Assembly (NCBI GenBank): GCA_965228735.1
Contig: OZ245838.1
Location: 2,752,001-2,816,000, forward strand
Source of the DNA: Planctomycetota bacterium
GTDB taxonomy: Bacteria > Planctomycetota > UBA1135 > UBA2386
Direction of reading: 5' to 3'
Length of the DNA: 64,000 nucleotides
The notes under the pieces: model-generated
Databases searched by the model: none
The model's input: only the letters and a program-made list of their open reading frames with translations
What the model was told of the DNA's origin: nothing
Program-made: the position numbers and the translations under genes
Shown here: positions 8,627 to 61,568 of the stretch, in pieces
Position numbering within the stretch: position 1 is the stretch's first letter
How the letters are laid out: each line of letters starts with the position of its first letter

Positions 8627-11600
8627 ATGCGATTCATGTCTCTGTCGACGGGGCTCGTTTTTGCCCTGTCCCTCCCCACCGGTGCGTTGGCGCAGAATGC
8701 GCAAGGCGACGTCCCGTCCCAGGATTCCGCGGCCCGCACGCCGGCGACCGATAACCGGATCCACCTGAAGTACGGCGTCTTCGATCCGCTCGCCGGTCTG
8801 CCGATGGTCGAGGAAACCCTCCTCGCCGCAGCCGACACCAACCTCTACATCGTCCAGTTCGACTACGCGTTCATCGACGCGGACCGCAACGCCCTGCGCG
8901 AGCTCGGCGGCAAGCTGCATGCGCCGCTGCCGCACAACGCCCTGATCGTCCGCATGGACTCGGCCGCCGCGGCCGCGGCCCAGAACATCGAGGGTGTCCG
9001 CTGGGTCGGCGACTACCAGCCGGCCTACCGTCTCGAGGGCGACCTGCTCACGGCCATTTCGACCGGCGGCGAACTCCCGGCGCAGAACTACAACATGGTC
9101 ATGGCCGACAAGGCCAACGACAAGGCGGCGCTGGGCGCCAAGATCGCCGCGCTGGGTGGCGAAGTCGTCGACGAGCACCGCGGCAGCCTGCTGTTCACGG
9201 CCAAGCTGACGAAGGCGCAGCTCATCATGGCCGCGCGCCTCGACGAGGTCCTCTGGATCGATCGCGAGACGGCCAAGGAGCTCGACATGGACAACGCCCG
9301 CGACGTGCAGGGCAGCGACTACCTCGACACCGTGGCCGGCTATGACGGCGACGGCAACGGCAGCGGCCGCATCCGCGGTCACGTCTACGAAGGCGTCGAG
9401 TCCAACCACCCCGACTTCGTCGTGCCGATGGTCAACGTCCGCAGCGGCGGCCAGGCCCAGAGCCACGGCCACTGCACGGCCGGCATCATCTTCAGCGACG
9501 GCACGGCCAGTGGCGCCAACGCGGTCGGCCACGCGCCGGGCGCTCGCGGCTACTACACCAACTACTCGACCGTCACGGCCGGGTGGTCGCGCAACCAGGT
9601 CATCAGCGACGTCGTCAACGTGCACAACTGCCTGTTCACGACCGCGTCGTGGGGCAACACGCGCACGACGCAGTACACGTCGATCTCGGCCGACGCCGAC
9701 GACATCGTGTTCGACCACCGCATCCCGTGGACGCAGAGCCAGTCGAACGCCGGTAACCAGAACTCGCGTCCGCAGGCGTGGGGCAAGAACATCATCTCGG
9801 TCGGCGCGCTGCGGCACTACAACGACAACAACCCGGGCAACGACCAGTGGGCCAACGGCGCCTCGATCGGCCCGGCGGCGGACGGTCGCATCAAGCCCGA
9901 CCTCTGCAACTTCTACGACTCGGTCGGCACCTCCGACCGTTCGGGCAGCGCCGGCTACGCCAGCGGCAGCTTCTTCTCGGGCTTCAGCGGCACCTCGGCG
10001 GCGACGCCGATCACGGCCGGCCTGAACGCGCTCGCGATCGAGATGTTCACGGACCACATCTTCGGGAACTCGCCCCGCGTCAACGGCGGCAGCGACTTCC
10101 AGAACCGTCCGTACGCGCAGACCGTCAAGGCGCTGCAGATCGCGAACGCGTCGCTCTACCCGTGGGGCGTCGGCGCTGGCCAGGCGATCCGCGACTGGCA
10201 GGGCTGGGGCTACGGCAACGTCCGCACGATGTACGACAACCGCGCCCGGCACTTCATCGTGCCCGAGGACCGGCCGATCCAGCAGGGTCAGACCCACACG
10301 TACTTCATCGACGTCGCCCCTGGCACGTCCATGCTGAAGATCGCGATGAGCTACCTCGACCCGGCCGGCCCGGTGTCGCCGGCGATCTCGCGCATCAACA
10401 ACCTCAACATGCAGGTCCGTCGTCCCAACGGCCTGCTCTACTGGGGCAACAACGGCCTGAAGAGCGGCAACACGTCGCAGGTCGGCGGCGGCAGCGACAC
10501 GCTTGACACCGTCGAGGTGTTCGTGATGCCGAACCCGCAGGCGGGTCAGTGGCGCATCCAGATCACGGCCCCGACGATCGCGCAGGACGCGCACGTCGCG
10601 ACCGGTGCGACGGACGCGACCTACGCCCTCGTCGCCTCGGGCGGCACCGCGGCCCAGACGGGTTGCGCGCGCTACATCCCGGACAACGATCCGACGAGCG
10701 GCACGATCAACACGATCCCGTTCGGCACGACGTCGTCGGGCAGCACGGGCCTGACCTCGCTCTTCGCCAGCAACAACGGCGGCAGCGTCGGCGGCACGAT
10801 CTTCTTCGACATCACGGCTTCCGGCACCGACAACATCTGGCTCGCCGGCATCGACGTGAACGTCAACGGGACGTCCGCTCCGGTCGGCACGCCGCTCGAG
10901 GCCGACATCTACTACGACTTCAACAGCACCTACGCTGGCATCGAGACCACCCCGGGCGCCTGGACGACCTGGACCGCCGCCAAGGGCGTGTCTGCCGGTC
11001 AGGACCTCGAGAGTCGACTCGTGTTCAACCGCCCGATCCAGATCTCGGCCGGCCAGACGTTCGCGATCGCCGTGGTGGCGCGCAACTTCGCGCACCGCTA
11101 CACCAACGGCGCGAACACCTTCAACGACTCCAACGTCACGATCGACCTCGGCTCGGCGACGAACGAGGCCTTCGGGCCCAGCGTGTTCAACCCGCGCTCC
11201 GGTAACGTGACCGTGCGTTACGCGGTGGACGGTGGTGCTGGCATCAACTGCCACTACCAGCAGGTCCTGCGCTCGGCCGACCTCGGCGGAGCCGGCGCCA
11301 TCACCGATCTCGCGTTCGCGCCGTCGGCCACGGCCCGGCACTACAACCGCACGATGCGGATCCGGATGGCCCACCGGCCTGCCGGCTACGTGATGTCGAC
11401 CACGTTCAGCAACAACATCTCGGGCTACACGACGGTTCTGAACGAGAGCTGGTACTCGTGGAACACCGAGAGTGACACCTGGACGCAGGTCGGACTCGAG
11501 AACCCGTTCAACTACAACGGGACGAGCGATGTCGTCGTCGAGATCTTCCTGACCGGCAACCTCGCGCTCGAAGGCTCGACCGGCGGCTTCCGCCGCGGCA

Positions 11601-12085
11601 CGGAGCAGCGCCTGTTCAACTGGACGTTCCCCTACACCAGCCTGCCGACCACCGGCACGCTCGGCAACGCGGGCACCAAGATCCGCGCCGAGTTCGGCTG
11701 CGGTGGCGGCAACGAGTTCGACACCGCGTGCGGCCCGCTCACGGCGAGCCACACCGGCAACGGCCAGCCCGGCACGACGTTCCGTTACGTGATGAACGAT
11801 GGTGTTCCGAGCAGCGGTGCGATCATCCAGCTCGGCTTCAACAACACCCGGACGAGCCTGAACACGTTCGGCTTCACGAACTGCAACCAGTGGAACGACA
11901 ACGTCGCCTCGGTGTTCAAGTTCACGAACGCGAGCGGTAGCGCCAACCACCCGATCTCGCTGCCGTCCACGGCGGCGTTCAACGGCCTCGTGATCCACGG
12001 GCACTGGTACAACTTCGACGCCAGCGCCCCGGCCGGCATCACGGTGTCGAACTCGACGCGCCTGATCATCGGCGAAGCGCCGTAG
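8627..12085 (+). CDS. Secreted S8 (subtilisin-like) serine peptidase with multiple C-terminal beta-rich domains
   Basis: AGAGGA RBS before ATG 8627; signal peptide ending ALAQ; prodomain; SHGHCTAG, DGRIKPDL, FSGTSAATP, QGWG motifs. Confidence 0.88.
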   Translation: MRFMSLSTGLVFALSLPTGALAQNAQGDVPSQDSAARTPATDNRIHLKYGVFDPLAGLPMVEETLLAAADTNLYIVQFDYAFIDADRNALRELGGKLHAPLPHNALIVRMDSAAAAAAQNIEGVRWVGDYQPAYRLEGDLLTAISTGGELPAQNYNMVMADKANDKAALGAKIAALGGEVVDEHRGSLLFTAKLTKAQLIMAARLDEVLWIDRETAKELDMDNARDVQGSDYLDTVAGYDGDGNGSGRIRGHVYEGVESNHPDFVVPMVNVRSGGQAQSHGHCTAGIIFSDGTASGANAVGHAPGARGYYTNYSTVTAGWSRNQVISDVVNVHNCLFTTASWGNTRTTQYTSISADADDIVFDHRIPWTQSQSNAGNQNSRPQAWGKNIISVGALRHYNDNNPGNDQWANGASIGPAADGRIKPDLCNFYDSVGTSDRSGSAGYASGSFFSGFSGTSAATPITAGLNALAIEMFTDHIFGNSPRVNGGSDFQNRPYAQTVKALQIANASLYPWGVGAGQAIRDWQGWGYGNVRTMYDNRARHFIVPEDRPIQQGQTHTYFIDVAPGTSMLKIAMSYLDPAGPVSPAISRINNLNMQVRRPNGLLYWGNNGLKSGNTSQVGGGSDTLDTVEVFVMPNPQAGQWRIQITAPTIAQDAHVATGATDATYALVASGGTAAQTGCARYIPDNDPTSGTINTIPFGTTSSGSTGLTSLFASNNGGSVGGTIFFDITASGTDNIWLAGIDVNVNGTSAPVGTPLEADIYYDFNSTYAGIETTPGAWTTWTAAKGVSAGQDLESRLVFNRPIQISAGQTFAIAVVARNFAHRYTNGANTFNDSNVTIDLGSATNEAFGPSVFNPRSGNVTVRYAVDGGAGINCHYQQVLRSADLGGAGAITDLAFAPSATARHYNRTMRIRMAHRPAGYVMSTTFSNNISGYTTVLNESWYSWNTESDTWTQVGLENPFNYNGTSDVVVEIFLTGNLALEGSTGGFRRGTEQRLFNWTFPYTSLPTTGTLGNAGTKIRAEFGCGGGNEFDTACGPLTASHTGNGQPGTTFRYVMNDGVPSSGAIIQLGFNNTRTSLNTFGFTNCNQWNDNVASVFKFTNASGSANHPISLPSTAAFNGLVIHGHWYNFDASAPAGITVSNSTRLIIGEAP

Positions 12086-53233: not shown

Positions 53234-53413
53234 TCACCGACACGCCTCGACCCCGGGTTCGCCGGAGCCGGGCTCGCGCCCGCAGGTGTTGCACGAGCCG
53301 TCGGCGCTGAGTCCCCCGCACGAGCCGGACAGCCGCCGGCCGGACAATGCGAGGAACACGACCGCGACGACCGGGATCGTGAACACAAGGACGGGAAGCA
53401 GGACCGAGGACAC
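53234..53413 (-). CDS. nqrM: Na+-NQR maturation protein NqrM-like
   Basis: About 59 aa from GTG 53413: a TM helix, then GRRLSGSCGGL...CNTC...C (4 Cys); directly upstream of nqrA. Confidence 0.72.
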   Translation of the reverse strand: MSSVLLPVLVFTIPVVAVVFLALSGRRLSGSCGGLSADGSCNTCGREPGSGEPGVEACR

Positions 53414-53612
53414 CGTTTTCGCTCCGAAAAGTCGCAAGCAGGTTAGCGAACGGCGCCCGAGATTCGAGGCTGCGATTTCGAGAGCAGCGCGAATCCGGGG
53501 ACCGAAGGCCGGGTATCTGGTCGAACGCCGGGGCGCGGCCGCCGAATTTCGCGAATCGCCGACTCCAGCCGGGAATCGCGCCAATGCGGCCCGAAGTCAG
53601 CGGCGCGGCCCC

Positions 53613-53879
53613 TCAAAGCCGGGCCAGCACGAGATCCGAGAGCGCCCCGAGCGTGTTGCAGTTGCGCAGCGACACGTCCTGGTCCTCGACCTTGACCCCG
53701 AAGCGGCTCTCGAGGAACTCGACGATCTCGAGAACGCCGGCCGAATCGACGATCCCCGAGGTCACGAGCGGCGTGTCGGTCTCGAGCCCGTCGCCCCGAC
53801 CGTCGCGAAACCAATCGGCCACGAAGCCGCGGATCTGGGCCAGCACGGAGTCTCGGGTCGGCAGCGGTTCGGCGGTCAT
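53613..53879 (-). CDS. Acyl carrier protein
   Basis: 88 aa, acidic; DTPLVTSGIVDS..VLEIVEFLESRFGV.V carrier-protein motif. Confidence 0.85.
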   Translation of the reverse strand: MTAEPLPTRDSVLAQIRGFVADWFRDGRGDGLETDTPLVTSGIVDSAGVLEIVEFLESRFGVKVEDQDVSLRNCNTLGALSDLVLARL

Positions 53880-54260
53880 GCGGGCGGCAGACTATGCCAG
53901 CGAAGCGGCGCCCGGGAAAGGCCGAGAACCCGGCCACGGAGCACTGATGCCATGAGTGTGGATTTCCCGGCGCGCGCCGCGCCCAAGCGCCGGCGGGCCG
54001 CGCGCTTGCGGCAGGAGGGTGCCCTCGGGCCGGACGCGTGCCCGGGACCGCGGAGCCGGCAACGAGTTGCGGACATCCAACCACACGCAAGGCATCAGCC
54101 CCGGGGGGATGCGGCGGTGGCTGCCCGAGTTCGTGGACAGAACCCCACAACTACCTGCAAAGTCTCGACCTGCGCGCGTTCGCCAGCCGCCCGATTGACC
54201 GCCGCTGCGTTGCGCGCGGCCCGAGCCGCCATTACCGTCCGTCCCCGGGAGGCTCAGGTC

Positions 54261-55154
54261 ATGCTGTATTCGCTCGTCATTCCGGCCCACAACGAGGAAG
54301 GCATCCTCACGGCGACGGTCGACAGGATCCTCACGGCGATGCGCGCCGAGGCGATCCCGACGGAGCTCATCCTCGTCGAGGACAACAGCACCGACGGGAC
54401 GCTGCCGGTGATGCAGGCACTGCAGTCGCGCTGGCCGGAGATCCGGATCGTGCAGCGCACGCCACCGGGCGGGTTCGGTCGCGCGGTGCGTTCCGGCGTC
54501 GAGGCGGTCACGGGCGACGTCGTGGCGATCGTGATGGCGGACGACTCGGACGACCCGAAGGACATCGTCGCCTACTACCGCAAGATCCAGGAAGGCTACG
54601 ACTGCGTCTTCGGCTCACGCTTCCGGAAGCAGAGCGTGGTGAAGGACTACCCCTGGTTCAAGTACGTGCTCAACCGCGTCGTGAACAAGATGATCCAGAT
54701 CCTGTTCTGGACGAAGTTCAACGACATCACGAACGCGTTCAAGGCCTACCGCACCGAGGTGATCCGCACCTGCGGGCCCTACACGGCGTGCCACTTCAAT
54801 ATCACGATCGAGATGTCGCTGAGCGCGCTGATCCGCAAGTACGACATCGCGGAGATCCCGATCAGCTGGTACGGCCGGACCTGGGGTTCGTCGAGCCTCA
54901 AGGTCACGGAGATGGGCCGGCGCTACCTCGCCGTGCTGCTCAAGCTGTTCTTCGATCGCATGCTCGTCGCCGACGACCTGCTGTCGGAGAAGGTCGCCGC
55001 GCACGGTCGGCAGCAGCAGCACACGGATCGGCTCGAGCAACGGCTCGGCGAGGTCGAGTCCAAGCTGGGCATCCAGCAGGCAGCGGAGATCCAGCAGAAG
55101 GGGACCGCGGCTGCCGCACCGGCCGCGAAGACCGCGGCGCGGGACGCCGGATGA
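54261..55154 (+). CDS. GT2 glycosyltransferase (polyprenol-phosphate glycosyltransferase/DPM1-like)
   Basis: VIPAHNEE, EDNSTDGT, GFGRAVRSG, MADDSD, VFGSRF, DITNAFKAYR; GGGAGG RBS. Confidence 0.9.
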   Translation: MLYSLVIPAHNEEGILTATVDRILTAMRAEAIPTELILVEDNSTDGTLPVMQALQSRWPEIRIVQRTPPGGFGRAVRSGVEAVTGDVVAIVMADDSDDPKDIVAYYRKIQEGYDCVFGSRFRKQSVVKDYPWFKYVLNRVVNKMIQILFWTKFNDITNAFKAYRTEVIRTCGPYTACHFNITIEMSLSALIRKYDIAEIPISWYGRTWGSSSLKVTEMGRRYLAVLLKLFFDRMLVADDLLSEKVAAHGRQQQHTDRLEQRLGEVESKLGIQQAAEIQQKGTAAAAPAAKTAARDAG

Positions 55155-56230
55155 GCCAGCGGTTTCGGCACGCACTCGTGACCGGCGGCGCCGGCTTCGT
55201 CGGCAGCCGACTCTGCCTGCGGCTCAGAGCCAGTGATCCCGATCTGCGGGTCACGGCGTTCGACAACCTCGTTCGCCGCGGCAGTGAGCTGCACGTGCCG
55301 CTGCTGCGCGAGCACGGCGTCGAGTTCCGTCACGGCGACATCCGGTGCCCCGAGGACTTCGAGGGGTTGCCGCCGTTCGACCTGCTGCTCGAGTGCTCGG
55401 CCGAACCGTCCGTGCACGCGGGCCAGGACGGCTCGCCCGTCGGCGTCGTGCACAACAATCTCACGGGCACGCTGCACTGCCTCGAAGCCGCGCGCCAGCA
55501 GGACGCCGCCGTGCTGTTCCTCAGCACGAGCCGGGTCTACCCGATCGCGCACCTGCGGAGCCTGCGGACCGAAGAACGGGCGAGCCGACTCGCGCTCGCG
55601 GCCGAGCAATCGTTGGCCGGTTGTTCGGAGAACGGCATCGCCGAGGACTTCCCGCTCGACGGTCCGCGCTCGTTCTACGGCATGACGAAGCTCGCGGGCG
55701 AGGCGCTGATCCACGAGTACGGCTTCACCTATGGCACGCGCGCGCTGATCAACCGCTGCGGCGTGATCGCGGGCCCGGGCCAGATGGGCAAGGTCGACCA
55801 GGGCGTCGTGACGCTGTGGGCCGCGCGCCACATCTACGAGCAGCCGCTGAAGTACATCGGCTTCGGCGGGCACGGCAAGCAGGTGCGCGACATCCTGCAC
55901 GTCGACGATCTGTGCGACCTCGTGATGGCGCAGCTACAGCGCAGCGAGCTGTGGGACGGCCGCATCTACAATGCCGGCGGCGGCACCGCGCACTCCGCCT
56001 CGCTGCTCGAACTAACGGGCCTGTGCCGCGAGCTCACGGGCAAATCGGTCGCCATCACGCCACAGCCCGAGACCAACGCGGTCGACGTGCCGCTCTACGA
56101 GACGGACAACGCCAAGGTCACCCGCGAATGCGCCTGGTCCCCGCAGCGCAGCGTTGCGCAGACGGTCGAAGAGATCGTCGCCTGGATCCGCGATCGAAAG
56201 GACGAGCTCCGCCCGATCCTCGGCACGTGA
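55151..56230 (+). CDS. NAD-dependent epimerase/dehydratase (RfbE/CDP-paratose epimerase-like)
   Basis: VTGGAGFVG, DNL.RRG, YGMTK, DQG, GKQVRDILHV; ATGA overlap. Confidence 0.88.
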   Translation: MSQRFRHALVTGGAGFVGSRLCLRLRASDPDLRVTAFDNLVRRGSELHVPLLREHGVEFRHGDIRCPEDFEGLPPFDLLLECSAEPSVHAGQDGSPVGVVHNNLTGTLHCLEAARQQDAAVLFLSTSRVYPIAHLRSLRTEERASRLALAAEQSLAGCSENGIAEDFPLDGPRSFYGMTKLAGEALIHEYGFTYGTRALINRCGVIAGPGQMGKVDQGVVTLWAARHIYEQPLKYIGFGGHGKQVRDILHVDDLCDLVMAQLQRSELWDGRIYNAGGGTAHSASLLELTGLCRELTGKSVAITPQPETNAVDVPLYETDNAKVTRECAWSPQRSVAQTVEEIVAWIRDRKDELRPILGT

Positions 56231-56233
56231 CCC

Positions 56234-56366
56234 CCCGTACGGTACCTGGTTCAGACTGCCGGGCCGAAGCGGCGGCGACGGCGCGAAGCGCCGCAGCCGC
56301 CGCCTCGGCCCGGCAGTTTGAACCAGGTACCGTACGGGTGACCTTAGGTACCGTACGGGTGACCTT
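56234..56366. repeat. REP/MITE-like element copy 2: long hairpin plus a 21-bp tandem duplication
   Basis: CCCGTACGGTACCTGGTTCA (56234-56253) pairs with 56319-56338 and the stem continues inward; AGGTACCGTACGGGTGACCTT occurs twice (56325-56345, 56346-56366). Confidence 0.9.
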
Positions 56367-56407
56367 CCGCTGTTTCGCGGCTCACTCCTCCCCTACCATT
56401 CGGGGCC

Positions 56408-57553
56408 ATGGTTCATGGCGGTAAGACAGTGGTCGTCACCGGCGCGGCCGGGCTCGTGGGTTCGGAGGCGGTCAGCTTCTACTCCGAACGCGGCGCCCGG
56501 GTGCTCGGGGTCGACAACAACATGCGGCGGTCGTTCTTCGGCGCGGACGGGGACACGACGTGGAATCGCGAGCGGCTGCAGCAGGCGTATCGCGGCTACG
56601 AACATCGGCATCTCGACATCCGCGATCGCGAGGGGATCGACGCGCTGTTCCGGGCGGAGAAACCCGATCTGATCGTGCACTGCGCGGCGCAGCCGTCGCA
56701 CGACCTCGCGGCGCGGCGCCCGTTCGACGACTTCGACGTCAACGCGGTGGGCACGATGAACCTGCTCGAGGCGTGCCGGCAACACTGCCCCGAGTCGCCG
56801 TTCGTCTTCACGTCGACCAACAAGGTCTACGGCAACGCGCCCAACGAGGTGCCGCTCGTCGAACTCGAGACGCGCTGGGACTACGAACGGCCGGAGGACC
56901 GCCAGGGCATCGACGAGACGTGCCGCATCGACCAGTGCCTGCACAGCCTGTTCGGCGCCTCGAAGGTCGCCGCGGACGTGATGGCGCAGGAGTATGGCCG
57001 CTACTTCGACATGCCGGTCGGCGTGTTCCGCGGCGGCTGCCTCACGGGCTCGCACCATTCCGGCGCGGAGCTGCACGGCTTCCTGGCCTACCTCGTGCGC
57101 GCGACGTTCGAAGGGCGGCAGTACCGGATCTTCGGCTACCAGGGCAAGCAGGTGCGCGACAACATCGACAGCCGCGACGTGATCGCCGCGATGGATGCGT
57201 TCGCGCAGGCACCGCGCCCGGGCGAGGTCTACAACCTCGGCGGCGGGCGGGCGAACTCGATCTCGATGCTCGAGGCGATCGCGACGATCGAACACCGCAC
57301 GGGCAAGACGCTCGCTCACGAGTACGTCGACGACAACCGCATCGGTGATCACATCTGCTACATCACCGACATGTCCAAGTTCCGGTCGCACTATCCGGAC
57401 TGGTCGCTGCAGCACTCGCTCGACGACGTGTTGACCGACATGGTCGACGCGATGGCCGAGCGCTACGCGCGCACCGACGCGGCTCCGGTCGCCGCGCGCC
57501 GCCCCTACTCGAGCGACGAGAGGGTCAACGAGGACACCGCGACGCCGAGCTGA
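56408..57553 (+). CDS. NAD-dependent epimerase/dehydratase (RfbE-like, second)
   Basis: [50 protein letters not shown]. Confidence 0.88.
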
Positions 57554-59523
57554 CGGCGTTCGTCGCGCAGCCCGTAGTCGAACGGGGCGAACGCGTCGGG
57601 GAACACGAACTCGAGATCGAACGGGCCGGCCGCGATCGGCGGCACCGCGAGATCGACCGTGACATGATCGTGGTCCACGGCCACGAATTCACCGACGACC
57701 TCGCCGAACGCGCACACCTGCACGCGCTGCGTCGGCGCGCGCTCGGCGTCCACGTTCGTCATCGCGTAGGTGAGCTCGAGCCGCAGCGGTCCGGTGTGCG
57801 CGGGCGCCTCGAAGCGCATGCGTGCGCGCCGACCGGCACTCCAGACGAACCCGCCCTCGTCGATGCTCCAGCCCTCGCGCAGGAACGGTCTGGCGTTGCC
57901 GTCGAAGCCGAAACGCAGCTCGTCACCCCAGTGGTAGGCCGCCGGCGCGAGCCGACGCGGGGCGGCGGCCTCCGCGGCGAACACCGACCAGCGCCGCCGG
58001 GCGAGATAGTCGGCGCCGGCCCGGACGCGGGCCGCGTTGCCGTAGAGCGCTTCGAGCTCGGTGTCCGCGCGATTGCGGTAGTCGACGAGCATCGGCACGA
58101 GCATGGAACGCGACGCGTGCTCCGACTGCGCGATCGCGAGCCCGACGCGATAGCTCTGGACCGCGCCGACGGTGAGCAGAACGAGTCCGGCGACGGCAAA
58201 CCACCGTAGGGCGGCCGGCGGCCGTGAGGAGTCGGCGGGTGCCCCCGCGCGCGCCGGAAGCCGCAGCAAGGCAGCGAGCAGCGTGACGAGCACCGCGATG
58301 ACCGGCAACGAGTAGGTCGCGTAGGCCGCGCGATACGCGAGGTGACCGTTGCCCGAACGACCGACGGCGATCATCGCGAGCGTCGCGAGCGCGAACGCGC
58401 CGACCCCGATCCAGATCCCCTGCCGCGCGAGATCGCGGCGCCGCCACAGCACGACCGTCGCGAACGTCAGCGCGAGCAACACGAGGATGCCGACGACCTC
58501 ACCGAGGTCACCCGCGGCCTCCCCGGACCCCGCGACCCACGCACCGCACAACGTGACGAAGAAGTCGAGCAGGCGTGCTGGCTCGAGCAGCGCCGACGTG
58601 ACCGACGCGTGGTGCACGGGCGTCCGATAGCCGATGAAGTAGACGCCCCACACGAGCCCGCCGACGATCAGCCACGACAACGCGAGCCGCACGATGGCGC
58701 CCCGGTTGCTCACCGCCTCCCGCCAGCACGGCAGCAGCAGCACGAGCCCGGCCGGCCAGGCCAGGAGCCCCATGGCCGACGAGAACGAGGCGGCCGTCGC
58801 GCCGAGGATCGCGCCCAGGAAGTGCCGGTTGCGCCCGCGTTTCGGAACGCCCCCGACAGCAGGGTCGCCGACCCGCCCGACCGCGACGTGCAGGTGGAAC
58901 ATCGCGATGAACGTGAACGTCAACGGCATCGTCAGCCCGATCTGGAAGCCCCAGAGCAGGTTCTCCGCCTGTCGCCAGCTCAGCAGCAACCACGCCACGA
59001 GCACGAACCACACGGGCGCGAGGCCGAACCGCAACCGCTCGCTGCGCCGCACCGCGAGGTAGGCGTAGAGCAGCATCACGCTCATGTGCAGCACGGTGAA
59101 CAGGCTCTGCGCCACGGTGTCGTACTGCGTCGCCCACGCGAGCAGGATCGCGCACGCCCGCGGGATGATGATGCGGTGCTCGTTGTGGAACGCGAGCAGC
59201 TCCGCGAGCCCGGCGTCGCCCGTGTCGATCGCCTCGAACAGGTGGACGAACTCCCACTCGTCCCAGAACGGCAGGTCGACGGCGTAGCTCGACACGTACG
59301 CGAACGTCGAGACCGCTGCCGCGAGACCGGCGATGCACCAGATCACCGACGGGCGGAACGGGCCGCGCACCTCGAGGCTGGTCACCCCGGCACTGGTCAC
59401 CCCGGCACTGGCCACGTTTGGGCTGGACTGGGACGACGGAGAAGGACTGGACGGCCGGCGGTTCAACGCCGGCGGATGGTATGGCGCAGCCGACGCGCTG
59501 TCATGCGTCGACCGCCCCATCAC
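57505..59523 (-). CDS. Polytopic membrane protein, GT-C-like, with a C-terminal periplasmic domain
   Basis: PFWDEW and HNEHRII after TM1; many TM segments; C-terminal GWS..E...WS...D.R.LG. Start uncertain. Confidence 0.65.
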
Positions 59524-59549: not shown

Positions 59550-61568
59550 CTACCCGCCGACGACCAGCGCCGCGGCGTCGGACATCACGCCGCCGAGGCC
59601 ATTCGCCCCGGCATCGAACGCAAACGCCTGCGAGAAGAACCGCGTGCCGACGAACATCGTCGACGCCGGAATCGCCAGGTTGAACGACACCGTGTTGCCG
59701 GTGCCGAGCAGCAGCAGCGTGCTGTCGGGCGACGCGTAGCCGGTGCAGCCCGGCGCGCCGAACGGCGCGAGGTCGACCGGCAGCGGACCGAAGGCCGACG
59801 TCGTCCGGCTCAGACCGAGCCAGAACACCGCGGCGTTCGTCGGGACGTTGTCGACGTTCGCCGTCATCGTCGCGCCGACCACCGGCTGGCTCGACACCGT
59901 GTTCGTCGGCACGCCGAGCGAACCCGCGCAGCCCGCGCCGATGTAGCCGTAGCCGCCCACGCCCGTGACCGAGTTGGTCGCGTAGTAGAGCGCGCCGTTC
60001 CAGATGCGCGGGTCGAAGACCGTGCCGGAGAACAGCGGATCACCCTGCGTGATGCCGGCCGTGATCGTCAGGTCGCTGTTGCTGAACGTCTCCACCTGAC
60101 CCGTGTTGGTGTAGGACGGCGACGAGCCGATCTGCTGGATCGCGAGACCGTGAACGCCGCTCGCGAGGAAGACCGGCGTCGAGAAGCTCACGAACGTGCG
60201 CTCACCGGGGCCGGCCGCGGTGACCGTTTCGTTCGCGACCTCGCGCCACTCGGTCGGGTCGGTCTCGCTGCCGACGTAGGTGCCGGGCTTCTGCCAGAGC
60301 ACGACCGTCAACGGCTGGCCGATCGCCTGGTTGCTGCGGACGTGCATGCCACAGACCGTCAGGCCCTCGGGGTTGGTGACGTCCGCGTCGATGAAGTTCG
60401 TGCCGCCCGTCGCGGTCGCGCTGATGATCACACCGCCGACGTCGAGCGTCTCGAGTCCGGTCGCGACGGCGATCTCGCGGGTCAACGTGACCGTCGGCTG
60501 ACAGAGCCGCCCGACGTTGAGCGTGATCTCGACCGGCACGCAGCCGTTCGGATACACGAAGATCGGGTTCTGTGCGGTCGAGTCGGTCAGACCATCACCG
60601 TCGAGGTCCCAGTCCCAGCTGGTCGGCGTCGGCGTGCTCGTGTCCGTGAACTGGACCGTGTTCTGGCCGATGAGCGCGGCGGTGAAGTCGGGAGTCACGA
60701 TATCGGTGACGATGTAGTTCGTGCGCGTGAGCTGCGTCGTGCCGCCGGCGTCGAACATGAAAACCGTGACGTCGTACGACCCGCAGGTCGTGTAGGTCGT
60801 CGACGGGTTCTGGACGGTCGTATCGACCGTGCCGTCACCGTCGAGATCCCAGGCCCAGCCGACGATGCCGGACGGGTTCGAGGTCGCGCCGATGCCGGTG
60901 AACTGCACCGCGAGCGGCGTCGCTCCACCCGTCACGTCCGACGTGAAGCTCACGAACGTTCCGCCGACGACGTACTCGAGCGCGATGTTCGCGTGGCGCG
61001 GCGCGAAGCCGTTCCCCGTCGTCGGATCGAACGGATCGAGCGCGGACGACCGCCGCACGCGCGCCGACGACATGTCGAGCGTGACCTCCGCCGTGCTGTA
61101 GGTCGGCGGCAGCGCCGGCGTCGGCGAGTTCGGGTTGGTGTAGATCGGGTTGCCGCCGTCGTGATGCAGCGCCATCCCGTAGGTGCCCATCGGCAGGGAG
61201 ATCGGCGAGGTCAGCACGTAGGTCGTGCGCCCCCCGGTGAACGTGACCGTCACGGAAGACGCCAGGGTCCACACGGACGCGTTGGTCTCGTTGCCGTTCG
61301 CCGTCGTGCCGGCCGGCGTGAGGTAGACGTCGAGCTTGTTGGTCAGGCTGAACGTCGTCGCCATGTTCACATCGATCTCGGTGATGATGATCCCGCTCGG
61401 ATCCGTCACGTCGACCTCGAAGAGCTGCGTGATCGGCGACGGGTTGGAGTTGCTGACGACGAGGCCGCCGACGAAGTTCGTCGTGCCCGGTTGCACACCG
61501 GCCGTGACCGGGGATTGGGCAGTGACGAACGGGGCGGCGCAGAGCAGTGAGAGAAGGAGTCTTTGCAT
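59550..61568 (-). CDS. Secreted PKD-domain protein
   Basis: Signal peptide ...VTAQ; two PKD repeats (PLAVQFT...WAWDLDGDG...QNP; VQFTDTS...WDWDLDGDG...QNP). Confidence 0.85.
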   Translation of the reverse strand: MQRLLLSLLCAAPFVTAQSPVTAGVQPGTTNFVGGLVVSNSNPSPITQLFEVDVTDPSGIIITEIDVNMATTFSLTNKLDVYLTPAGTTANGNETNASVWTLASSVTVTFTGGRTTYVLTSPISLPMGTYGMALHHDGGNPIYTNPNSPTPALPPTYSTAEVTLDMSSARVRRSSALDPFDPTTGNGFAPRHANIALEYVVGGTFVSFTSDVTGGATPLAVQFTGIGATSNPSGIVGWAWDLDGDGTVDTTVQNPSTTYTTCGSYDVTVFMFDAGGTTQLTRTNYIVTDIVTPDFTAALIGQNTVQFTDTSTPTPTSWDWDLDGDGLTDSTAQNPIFVYPNGCVPVEITLNVGRLCQPTVTLTREIAVATGLETLDVGGVIISATATGGTNFIDADVTNPEGLTVCGMHVRSNQAIGQPLTVVLWQKPGTYVGSETDPTEWREVANETVTAAGPGERTFVSFSTPVFLASGVHGLAIQQIGSSPSYTNTGQVETFSNSDLTITAGITQGDPLFSGTVFDPRIWNGALYYATNSVTGVGGYGYIGAGCAGSLGVPTNTVSSQPVVGATMTANVDNVPTNAAVFWLGLSRTTSAFGPLPVDLAPFGAPGCTGYASPDSTLLLLGTGNTVSFNLAIPASTMFVGTRFFSQAFAFDAGANGLGGVMSDAAALVVGG

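Follow-up and report, generated by a model that had tools for sequence, protein, structure and literature searches.

The described modules closest to the domain reported here are dockerins, T9SS type A CTDs, the tags of the PEP-CTERM class and SLH/DUF4214-type anchors. Dockerins are calcium-binding helical repeats of about 60 residues. SLH/DUF4214-type anchors are folded modules, helical and usually repeated, that hold proteins on the envelope from either terminus without being cleaved. PEP-CTERM, VPLPA-CTERM and IPTL-CTERM tags combine a motif of about 25 residues with a membrane helix and a basic tail, one type of terminal tag serving many exported proteins. The T9SS type A CTD (TIGR04183/PF18962) and FlgD_ig (PF13860) are Ig-like sandwiches present in single copy on Sec-exported cargo of all kinds; according to the accessible portion of PMC4804311, the T9SS CTD is 60-100 residues long, strictly C-terminal, cleaved by PorU, and has its conserved residues clustered in the last strands. 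Dockerins are mostly, though not always, C-terminal: the accessible part of PMC2930009 gives 156 C-terminal, 32 internal and 19 N-terminal ones for Ruminococcus flavefaciens FD-1. A planctomycete cohesin-dockerin "planctosome" has been put forward as a hypothesis, in the portion of PMC6461901 that is available, for another planctomycete family. Here we describe a terminal domain of about 135 residues that shares features with each of these modules and lies outside the T9SS CTD, PEP-CTERM and dockerin families by sequence.

The domain came to light in two exported proteins of the window, by which we mean the whole 64-kb stretch of DNA that was analysed (Table 1). The original prediction held that the ends of an S8 protease and a PKD protein align, that both proteins have Sec signal peptides ending in Ala-Gln, and that their cargo differs. 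The terminal similarity is real: all the motif pairs named there fall in register, BLASTP with BLOSUM45 aligns the termini at 22% identity across 118 residues (E=6e-7), and their Smith-Waterman score of 76 compares with 33.4±6.1 for shuffled sequences, none of 2,000 shuffles scoring as high. Both copies were also recovered by a leave-out profile from which the two window domains and their closest paralogues had been removed, the rows that stayed keeping their alignment from an earlier profile. Cleavage at A|Q was read in both signal peptides by eye and by a heuristic. As to the cargo, the PKD domain scores above the Pfam cut-offs, but the S8 label comes from homologues, since PF00082 was found in 117 of the 120 listed and gave no match in the window protein itself; 113 of these 120 terminate in the shared domain. 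The S8 copy retains the two cysteines, Pro98, Gly105, Ser-Asn and the final Gly, and has a His in place of a Gln that is near-invariant elsewhere (287 of 297 members). Both window proteins are thus confirmed members of one large, unannotated domain family. A profile search of the window yielded no third member, and an Rfam search of the window no matches.

Table 1. Features of the two window proteins that share a terminal domain
Feature	Position	Strand	Evidence
S8 subtilisin-family protease gene, 1152 aa, exported, shared domain at its end	8627..12085	+	ORF list; ATG 8627, stop 12085; homologues
S8 protein, predicted 22-aa Sec signal peptide; Gln is the first mature residue	8627..8692	+	Sequence reading, heuristic
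Weak PPC (pre-peptidase C-terminal) match in the S8 protein	10289..10567	+	PF04151 at 17.5 bits, short of the 25.9 cut-off
Shared terminal domain, S8 copy	11693..12082	+	Profile i-E 9e-24; leave-out profile 81.5 bits; envelope 11693-12076
PKD-domain protein gene, 672 aa, exported, shared domain at its end	59550..61568	-	ORF list; ATG 61568, stop 59550
PKD protein, predicted 17-aa Sec signal peptide; Gln is the first mature residue	61518..61568	-	Sequence reading, heuristic
PKD domain	60711..60923	-	PF18911 40.9 bits, PF00801 28.3 bits, both above Pfam cut-offs
Shared terminal domain, PKD copy (copy used for folding)	59553..59954	-	Profile i-E 2e-31; leave-out profile 114.0 bits; envelope 59553-59969; AlphaFold2 mean pLDDT 96.6, all-beta

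Two further observations concern the surroundings of these domains. Subtilases usually have a catalytic Asp in their triad; in the window S8 protease a Glu apparently occupies this position while the His and Ser motifs are intact, and Glu stands there in 97 of the 97 S8 homologues that could be parsed by pattern (23 were not parsed). Adjoining the PKD gene, positions 53286-59523 contain glycosyltransferase and nucleotide-sugar epimerase-like genes and a multi-helix membrane protein, as judged by their translations.

The size of the family was determined in the 7.19-Mb genome. The two termini, each used as a lone query, matched 17 and 70 ORFs. With an iterated profile and a threshold of i-E≤1e-3, the matches numbered 297 among the 61,526 six-frame ORFs, and no reversed decoy did better than 0.0096. 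When the last 175 residues of each of 5,403 genes, called by a purpose-made dicodon gene caller, were searched without filters, 354 proteins scored above 12 bits and no reversed decoy did. These counts were taken from the earlier iterated profile because later MAFFT-based iterations degraded and re-weighted ones gathered decoys. In 11 further proteins the domain lies immediately behind the signal peptide and no C-terminal copy is present. The profile count that the original prediction had proposed therefore comes to about 365 proteins (354 C-terminal and 11 N-terminal), or 7% of genes: hundreds rather than a few. The expectation that the domain is always C-terminal held only in part. Nearly all of the 354 copies lie at the very end, 339 finishing at most 15 residues before the stop, but 14 have 16-60 residues beyond the domain and one has more, and the 11 N-terminal copies depart from the rule altogether. 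The domain was single in every protein, none of 387 candidates having two copies. Members are about 22% identical. In public data, a cut-off of E≤0.001 gave 33,254 cluster representatives (50% identity), and the stricter E≤1e-10 gave 13,852; among the best 150 of the 33,254, the domain was C-terminal in 148 and N-terminal in 2, and one fragment had a doubtful partial second copy.

Carriers were also expected to have signal peptides. By a home-made rule, 234 of 296 carriers (79%) have one, against 1,595 of 4,382 other genes (36%), so that carriers are strongly enriched for signal peptides. A signal peptide followed by Gln at position +1 was found in 211 of the 296 carriers and in 576 of the 4,382 other genes. 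The mature chain thus starts with Gln in 71% of carriers, and it does so in many other exported proteins genome-wide; such a start recalls the Bacteroidetes "Q-rule" for pyroglutamate.

We compared the domain with known families. None of 62 members matched any Pfam or NCBIfam family at E≤0.01 and a PDB sequence search gave no match at E≤10, so these searches revealed no known domain with another function. In the Atlas, only unnamed Planctomycetota clusters were found at 0.97-0.98, named clusters reaching at most 0.83. The domain is undescribed in the literature searched; supplements and subscription papers lay outside that scope and may hold an unnamed mention. The available part of bioRxiv 10.1101/817700 makes no mention of it, the main text being without "C-terminal", "secretion" or "signal peptide", and neither does the available part of PMC11032199. 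Membership of the closest described classes was examined individually. TIGR04183/PF18962 matched none of the 62 members, the same model scoring 44.7 bits on P0199, a protein discussed below, and TIGR04183 had no match in the genome, where the search control was likewise unrecovered. The length of the domain and its presence at either end also set it apart from the T9SS CTD. A hydrophobic 17-residue stretch, as a membrane helix would require, is found in the last 40 residues of 0 of the 354 C-terminal copies, and a basic tail (at least three R/K in the last six residues) in just 3, unlike the PEP-CTERM class. Dockerin (PF00404) matched 0 of 62 members and nothing in the genome. SLH and DUF4214 show no sequence match to the domain either.

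To gain insight into its structure, the PKD copy was folded by AlphaFold2 with a 62-row alignment, which gave an all-beta model of high confidence (Table 1). Its fold matches are generic Ig-like sandwiches with tied Z scores of 7-8.7, those at Z 8.2 to 8.7 having an rmsd of 2.4-3.1 over 87-92 residues; the best had Z 8.2, rmsd 2.4 and 87 aligned residues in one search, and Z 8.7, rmsd 3.0 and 91 aligned residues in a second. The tied best matches include CBM56, adhesin and Ig domains, and no solved T9SS CTD is among the matches listed. The domain is thus predicted to be an Ig-like sandwich. A lipid-binding NPC2/ML fold, which had the top Foldseek E-values, was discarded, as its TM score is about 0.3 and its rmsd 12, and it is absent from the second-search matches listed. 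The two cysteines are both present in 176 members, both absent in 44 and discordant in 19, and they form the strongest coupled pair by covariation across 495 rows. This joint presence and top coupling make a Cys14-Cys71 disulfide likely. The near-invariant Gln111 couples with Ser/Thr127 and with residues 72-75 and is probably structural. A catalytic or cross-linking role for it was rejected, since it has no conserved catalytic partner and is absent in 10 of 297 members, the window S8 copy included. A homodimer prediction, with a score of 0.01, speaks neither for nor against a dimer.

Conservation is concentrated in the last strands of the domain, as it is in the T9SS CTD (PMC4804311). This feature, together with the Ig-like sandwich, the mostly C-terminal position and the Sec-exported cargo, is what might be expected if the domain were a T9SS- or sortase-like sorting signal at the C-terminus, removed by a protease so that the cargo becomes covalently linked to the surface. 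We regard this as very improbable. Conserved N-terminal copies and C-terminal extensions argue against it, and the domain has neither a membrane helix nor a basic tail, nor is there a conserved cleavage motif upstream of it. SprA (TIGR04189) was found in none of five genomes, in a search that likewise did not recover its control, and the one C25 peptidase of the genome stands in a context unrelated to T9SS. Exosortase (PF09721) as a partner was also rejected, as it does not track the domain, being present in 13 of the 30 multi-copy positive genomes (those with at least five domain matches) versus 51 of 120 others. The parallel drawn originally with T9SS CTDs and PEP-CTERM was therefore apt in one respect, a terminal tag on exported cargo that is exchanged for known tags, but it failed in the N-terminal copies, the extensions, the missing helix and the existence of untagged relatives.

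The exchange of tags was seen on two kinds of cargo. Among the best 120 homologues of the choice-of-anchor I family, 68 carry the domain and six a divergent form that we call type B. Others end in a T9SS CTD (P0199, the protein recognized by TIGR04183), a dockerin (P0207), PEP-CTERM (P0233, TIGR02595 23.4 bits), DUF4214 (P0216) and RTX repeats. In a galactose-oxidase-like family, 28 of 120 listed homologues (49-100% identity) carry it N-terminally, and their C-terminal tails are just 0-2 residues long. The remainder have 36 dockerin-like tails, 8 FlgD_ig, 14 IPTL-CTERM-like and 2 other tails, or are untagged (32); these classes were assigned by regex, except for four dockerins and the eight FlgD_ig, which were assigned by Pfam. 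Thus, the domain occupies the slot of known anchors and sorting signals, even from the opposite end of the chain, and the replacement of C-terminal tags by N-terminal copies indicates that it works at either end. That the same cargo bears dockerins, T9SS/FlgD tails or PEP/IPTL-CTERM in other bacteria favours the proposal of a sorting or anchoring tag. A search for such exchanges on S8 cargo in 30 domain-negative genomes gave only three matches and was uninformative.

Type B is a second, Cys-richer terminal domain carried by P0187-P0190, P0197 and P0198. Compared with the domain over 123 columns (E=3e-4, probability 40%), it is likely, though not firmly, homologous by sequence; it was undetected in this genome. 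In genome G022, an oxidase (L195:1417-3627) has a C-terminal tail of 170 residues whose last strands look domain-like by eye, a resemblance that is not significant (E=0.035).

The family is large, real and unannotated, and it is of the terminal sorting or docking type. The reading that we favour, with moderate confidence, is that the domain is an uncleaved, dockerin-like module that docks exported proteins non-covalently on the outer cell surface. Carriers would be exported by Sec and would then fold in the periplasm, acquiring the Cys14-Cys71 bond there; the folded protein would cross the outer membrane through a general secretin pathway for which the domain is dispensable, and the domain would bind a putative surface partner, which may be a protein scaffold, lipopolysaccharide or another glycan. 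This reading builds on the observed family size, position at either end, single copy, signal-peptide enrichment, coupling of the cysteines and exchange of tags on the same cargo. N-terminal copies, C-terminal extensions, the absence of a helix and the untagged relatives are easier to reconcile with a docking module than with a C-terminal signal that is cleaved off. Among the known modules it works most like dockerins: hundreds of signal-peptide proteins with unrelated cargo, a mostly C-terminal module with a minority behind the signal peptide, a single copy, the same slot on the same cargo, and dockerin expansions in other planctomycete lineages. The likeness does not extend to structure, since the domain is an all-beta sandwich of about 135 residues with a likely disulfide. 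Cohesin (PF00963) was found in 0 of 5 genomes, in a search that recovered its control in two and that divergent cohesins could escape.

The cargo is diverse. Clustering of 267 cargo regions gave 87 clusters, and 27 of 60 carriers picked to span many of these clusters had Pfam matches, among them kelch and Vps10 propellers, trypsin, S8, M14 and M43 peptidases, sulfatase, multicopper oxidase, FG-GAP, LamG, a beta-lactamase fold and choice-of-anchor I; NCBIfam added ELWxxDGT repeats. Five carriers are CxxCH cytochromes. True lipoproteins are rare, about 2 of the 354 domain proteins (12 regex matches, judged by eye), and ELWxxDGT cargo in this genome either bears the domain or is an apparent lipoprotein without it. 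The cargo is also unusual in composition. It contains 0.6% Lys, compared with 3.0% in other exported proteins, and the domain itself 0.3%. We scored 689 soluble proteins of at least 280 residues with a signal peptide and Gln, leaving out their last 140 residues. The domain was present in 250 of 273 proteins with a K+E+R fraction below 0.12, in 9 of 74 between 0.12 and 0.15, and in 0 of 342 at 0.15 or above. Tagged cargo was less charged than untagged homologues in the genome in 50 of 60 comparisons, which share homologues and hence are not independent. We infer that the low charge is an extracellular-type composition.

Near-complete coverage of low-charge proteins (250 of 273) is the pattern expected of an obligatory export signal, and it counts against docking. 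It leads to another reading, one that we consider possible if unlikely, in which the domain acts as an export tag that is folded and whose position on the cargo does not matter: a secretin-type machine, either a GspD/E/F type II system or a twin-secretin/TPR/ExbB/ExbD/ExbD locus running on the proton-motive force, would recognize the domain in the periplasm and export the whole protein. The absence of the domain from high-charge proteins, the lower charge of tagged members of the same families and the exchange with true export signals (T9SS CTD, FlgD_ig) support an export tag. Since CxxCH cytochromes mature in the periplasm, the five that bear the domain would need folded export. Against this stand untagged exported relatives in domain-positive genomes, among them the MAM-ending S8 proteases described below. 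An untagged oxidase is present in the domain-positive genome G024, and untagged oxidases share the composition of the tagged ones, so that export appears to be independent of the domain. These proteins would, however, no longer serve as counter-examples if they reside in the periplasm, as they may. Docking, which remains our preferred reading, and an export tag are not exclusive of each other.

A further possibility, that the domain serves to keep proteins within the enlarged periplasm of planctomycetes, for instance on peptidoglycan, appears highly improbable. It would agree with the Sec signal peptides and the likely disulfide, and no exporter is tied to the domain. Yet typical periplasm-like families lack it, namely PQQ propellers, most sulfatases, amidohydrolases and S9 peptidases (families judged by eye). 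Moreover, tagged cargo differs sharply in composition, and the same cargo is surface-tagged in other bacteria.

A generic binding or stabilizing module, serving particle or glycan adhesion as CBM, PKD and MAM domains do and spread without a dedicated partner, is also improbable, if not to the same degree. The Ig-like fold is in keeping with it, as are the matches to CBM56, adhesin and Ig domains that tie for best and the existence of about ten proteins that consist of a signal peptide and the domain and nothing else. MAM domains can also substitute for the domain in some S8 proteases, since MAM repeats, without the domain, end 4 of the 120 listed S8 homologues, one of them in this genome. However, generic binding modules usually repeat and sit internally, whereas this domain is single in 387 of 387 cases and terminal; it also joins 87 unrelated cargo clusters and is distributed among genomes in an all-or-none fashion. 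The untagged, MAM-ending, exported S8 form of this genome lies at G000:C1:891893-895762, and the S8-MAM combination recurs in other genomes. Four smaller genes here encode exported proteins that appear, by motif, to end in MAM; like the S8 form, they are low in charge and untagged.

The relatives are titled Planctomycetota MAGs. The domain was found in 19 of 20 relatives and in 31 of 150 genomes of the phylum, 30 of which have at least five matches (27 candidates scored per genome). G015, of the same order, has none, and 435 kb of its sequence gave no match where about 18 would be expected at the density of this genome. In a quick RpoB tree of 31 genomes, rooted at the midpoint, the distribution requires two changes, which a single gain and a loss in G015 could explain; with only two changes, phylogenetic profiling carries very little independent signal. 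At least 12 dockerin matches were found in 14 of the 150 genomes, all of them domain-negative, while domain-positive genomes had at most five. This apparent exclusivity of dockerins and the domain rests on few independent lineages, given the two changes on the tree.

The original prediction had suggested looking for outer-membrane or peptidase genes that co-occur with the domain. Five candidate machines or scaffolds were followed, and none was specific to it. The genome has seven secretins, including a GspD/E/F cluster. One locus, L097 (G000:C1:6769699-6784599), encodes in order a lipo-secretin, two TPR proteins, ExbB, two ExbD and a secretin; it is syntenic in G016, G017 and G030 and is possibly an undescribed proton-driven secretin machine. 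Its twin secretins of about 880 residues are present in 29 of the 30 multi-copy positive genomes. They were rejected as a specific partner, since they score in 135 of 151 genomes of the phylum and occur in the domain-negative G015. The 949-residue TPR partner occurs in 15 positive and 5 negative genomes and was not found in the positive G013, and the ExbB/ExbD of L097 have best-hit counterparts in G015. No link between the domain and a secretin was seen. A domain-only ORF within the twin-secretin locus has no signal peptide and no counterpart in the five other loci examined, and was treated as an inserted fragment. A bolder reading, which we consider unlikely, is that deep-branching planctomycetes have an undescribed secretin machine that reads the domain as a portable, position-independent address and both exports and displays about 7% of the proteome. 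Such a machine would combine a pair of large TPR-secretins with two TPR proteins of the periplasm and a motor made of ExbB/ExbD. Were it so, a secretin-type system would have one discrete, transplantable signal, and the choice of folded substrates by secretins would become directly testable.

The search for a docking partner covered scaffolds as well. An operon at L098 (G000:C1:2689306-2703361) contains three to four large Big_5 lipoproteins between pyrB and a prepilin peptidase/OmpA; it is syntenic across several families and expanded in G015, and nothing beyond Big_5 is annotated in it. With a single query, Big_5 appeared specific (17 of 17 matches in positive genomes), but a profile then found it in 20 of 120 other genomes and at five loci in G015 as well as in all 30 multi-copy positives, and it was rejected. 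Codon bias gave no clear enrichment that would reveal a dominant coat subunit (24 of the 256 top genes versus 18 expected). No scaffold or partner was found among the candidates tested, which counts against docking. As regards the proposal that the domain tags cargo for an export or surface-attachment system, the number of hits, their position, the signal peptides and the exchange of tags favour it, but no dedicated machinery is tied to the domain. An exosortase with a C-terminal extension, encoded in a polysaccharide cluster at G000:C1:1004129-1006018, is apparently an orphan, as no PEP-CTERM substrate was found by regex among the called genes.

In a large branch of the Planctomycetota that is for the most part uncultured, this one domain labels most of the extracellular-type proteome, and its profile is an immediate predictor of surface and secreted proteins in these genomes. 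It would represent a lineage-wide tagging system beside T9SS CTDs, PEP-CTERM and dockerins, unusual in acting from either end of the cargo, and identifying its partner would expose a new surface scaffold or export machine. One of the proteins made up of a signal peptide and the domain alone, at G000:C1:499811-500227, is His-rich and is possibly a surface metal binder; its neighbours are, by eye, a small beta-barrel-like gene and an outer-membrane efflux-like gene.
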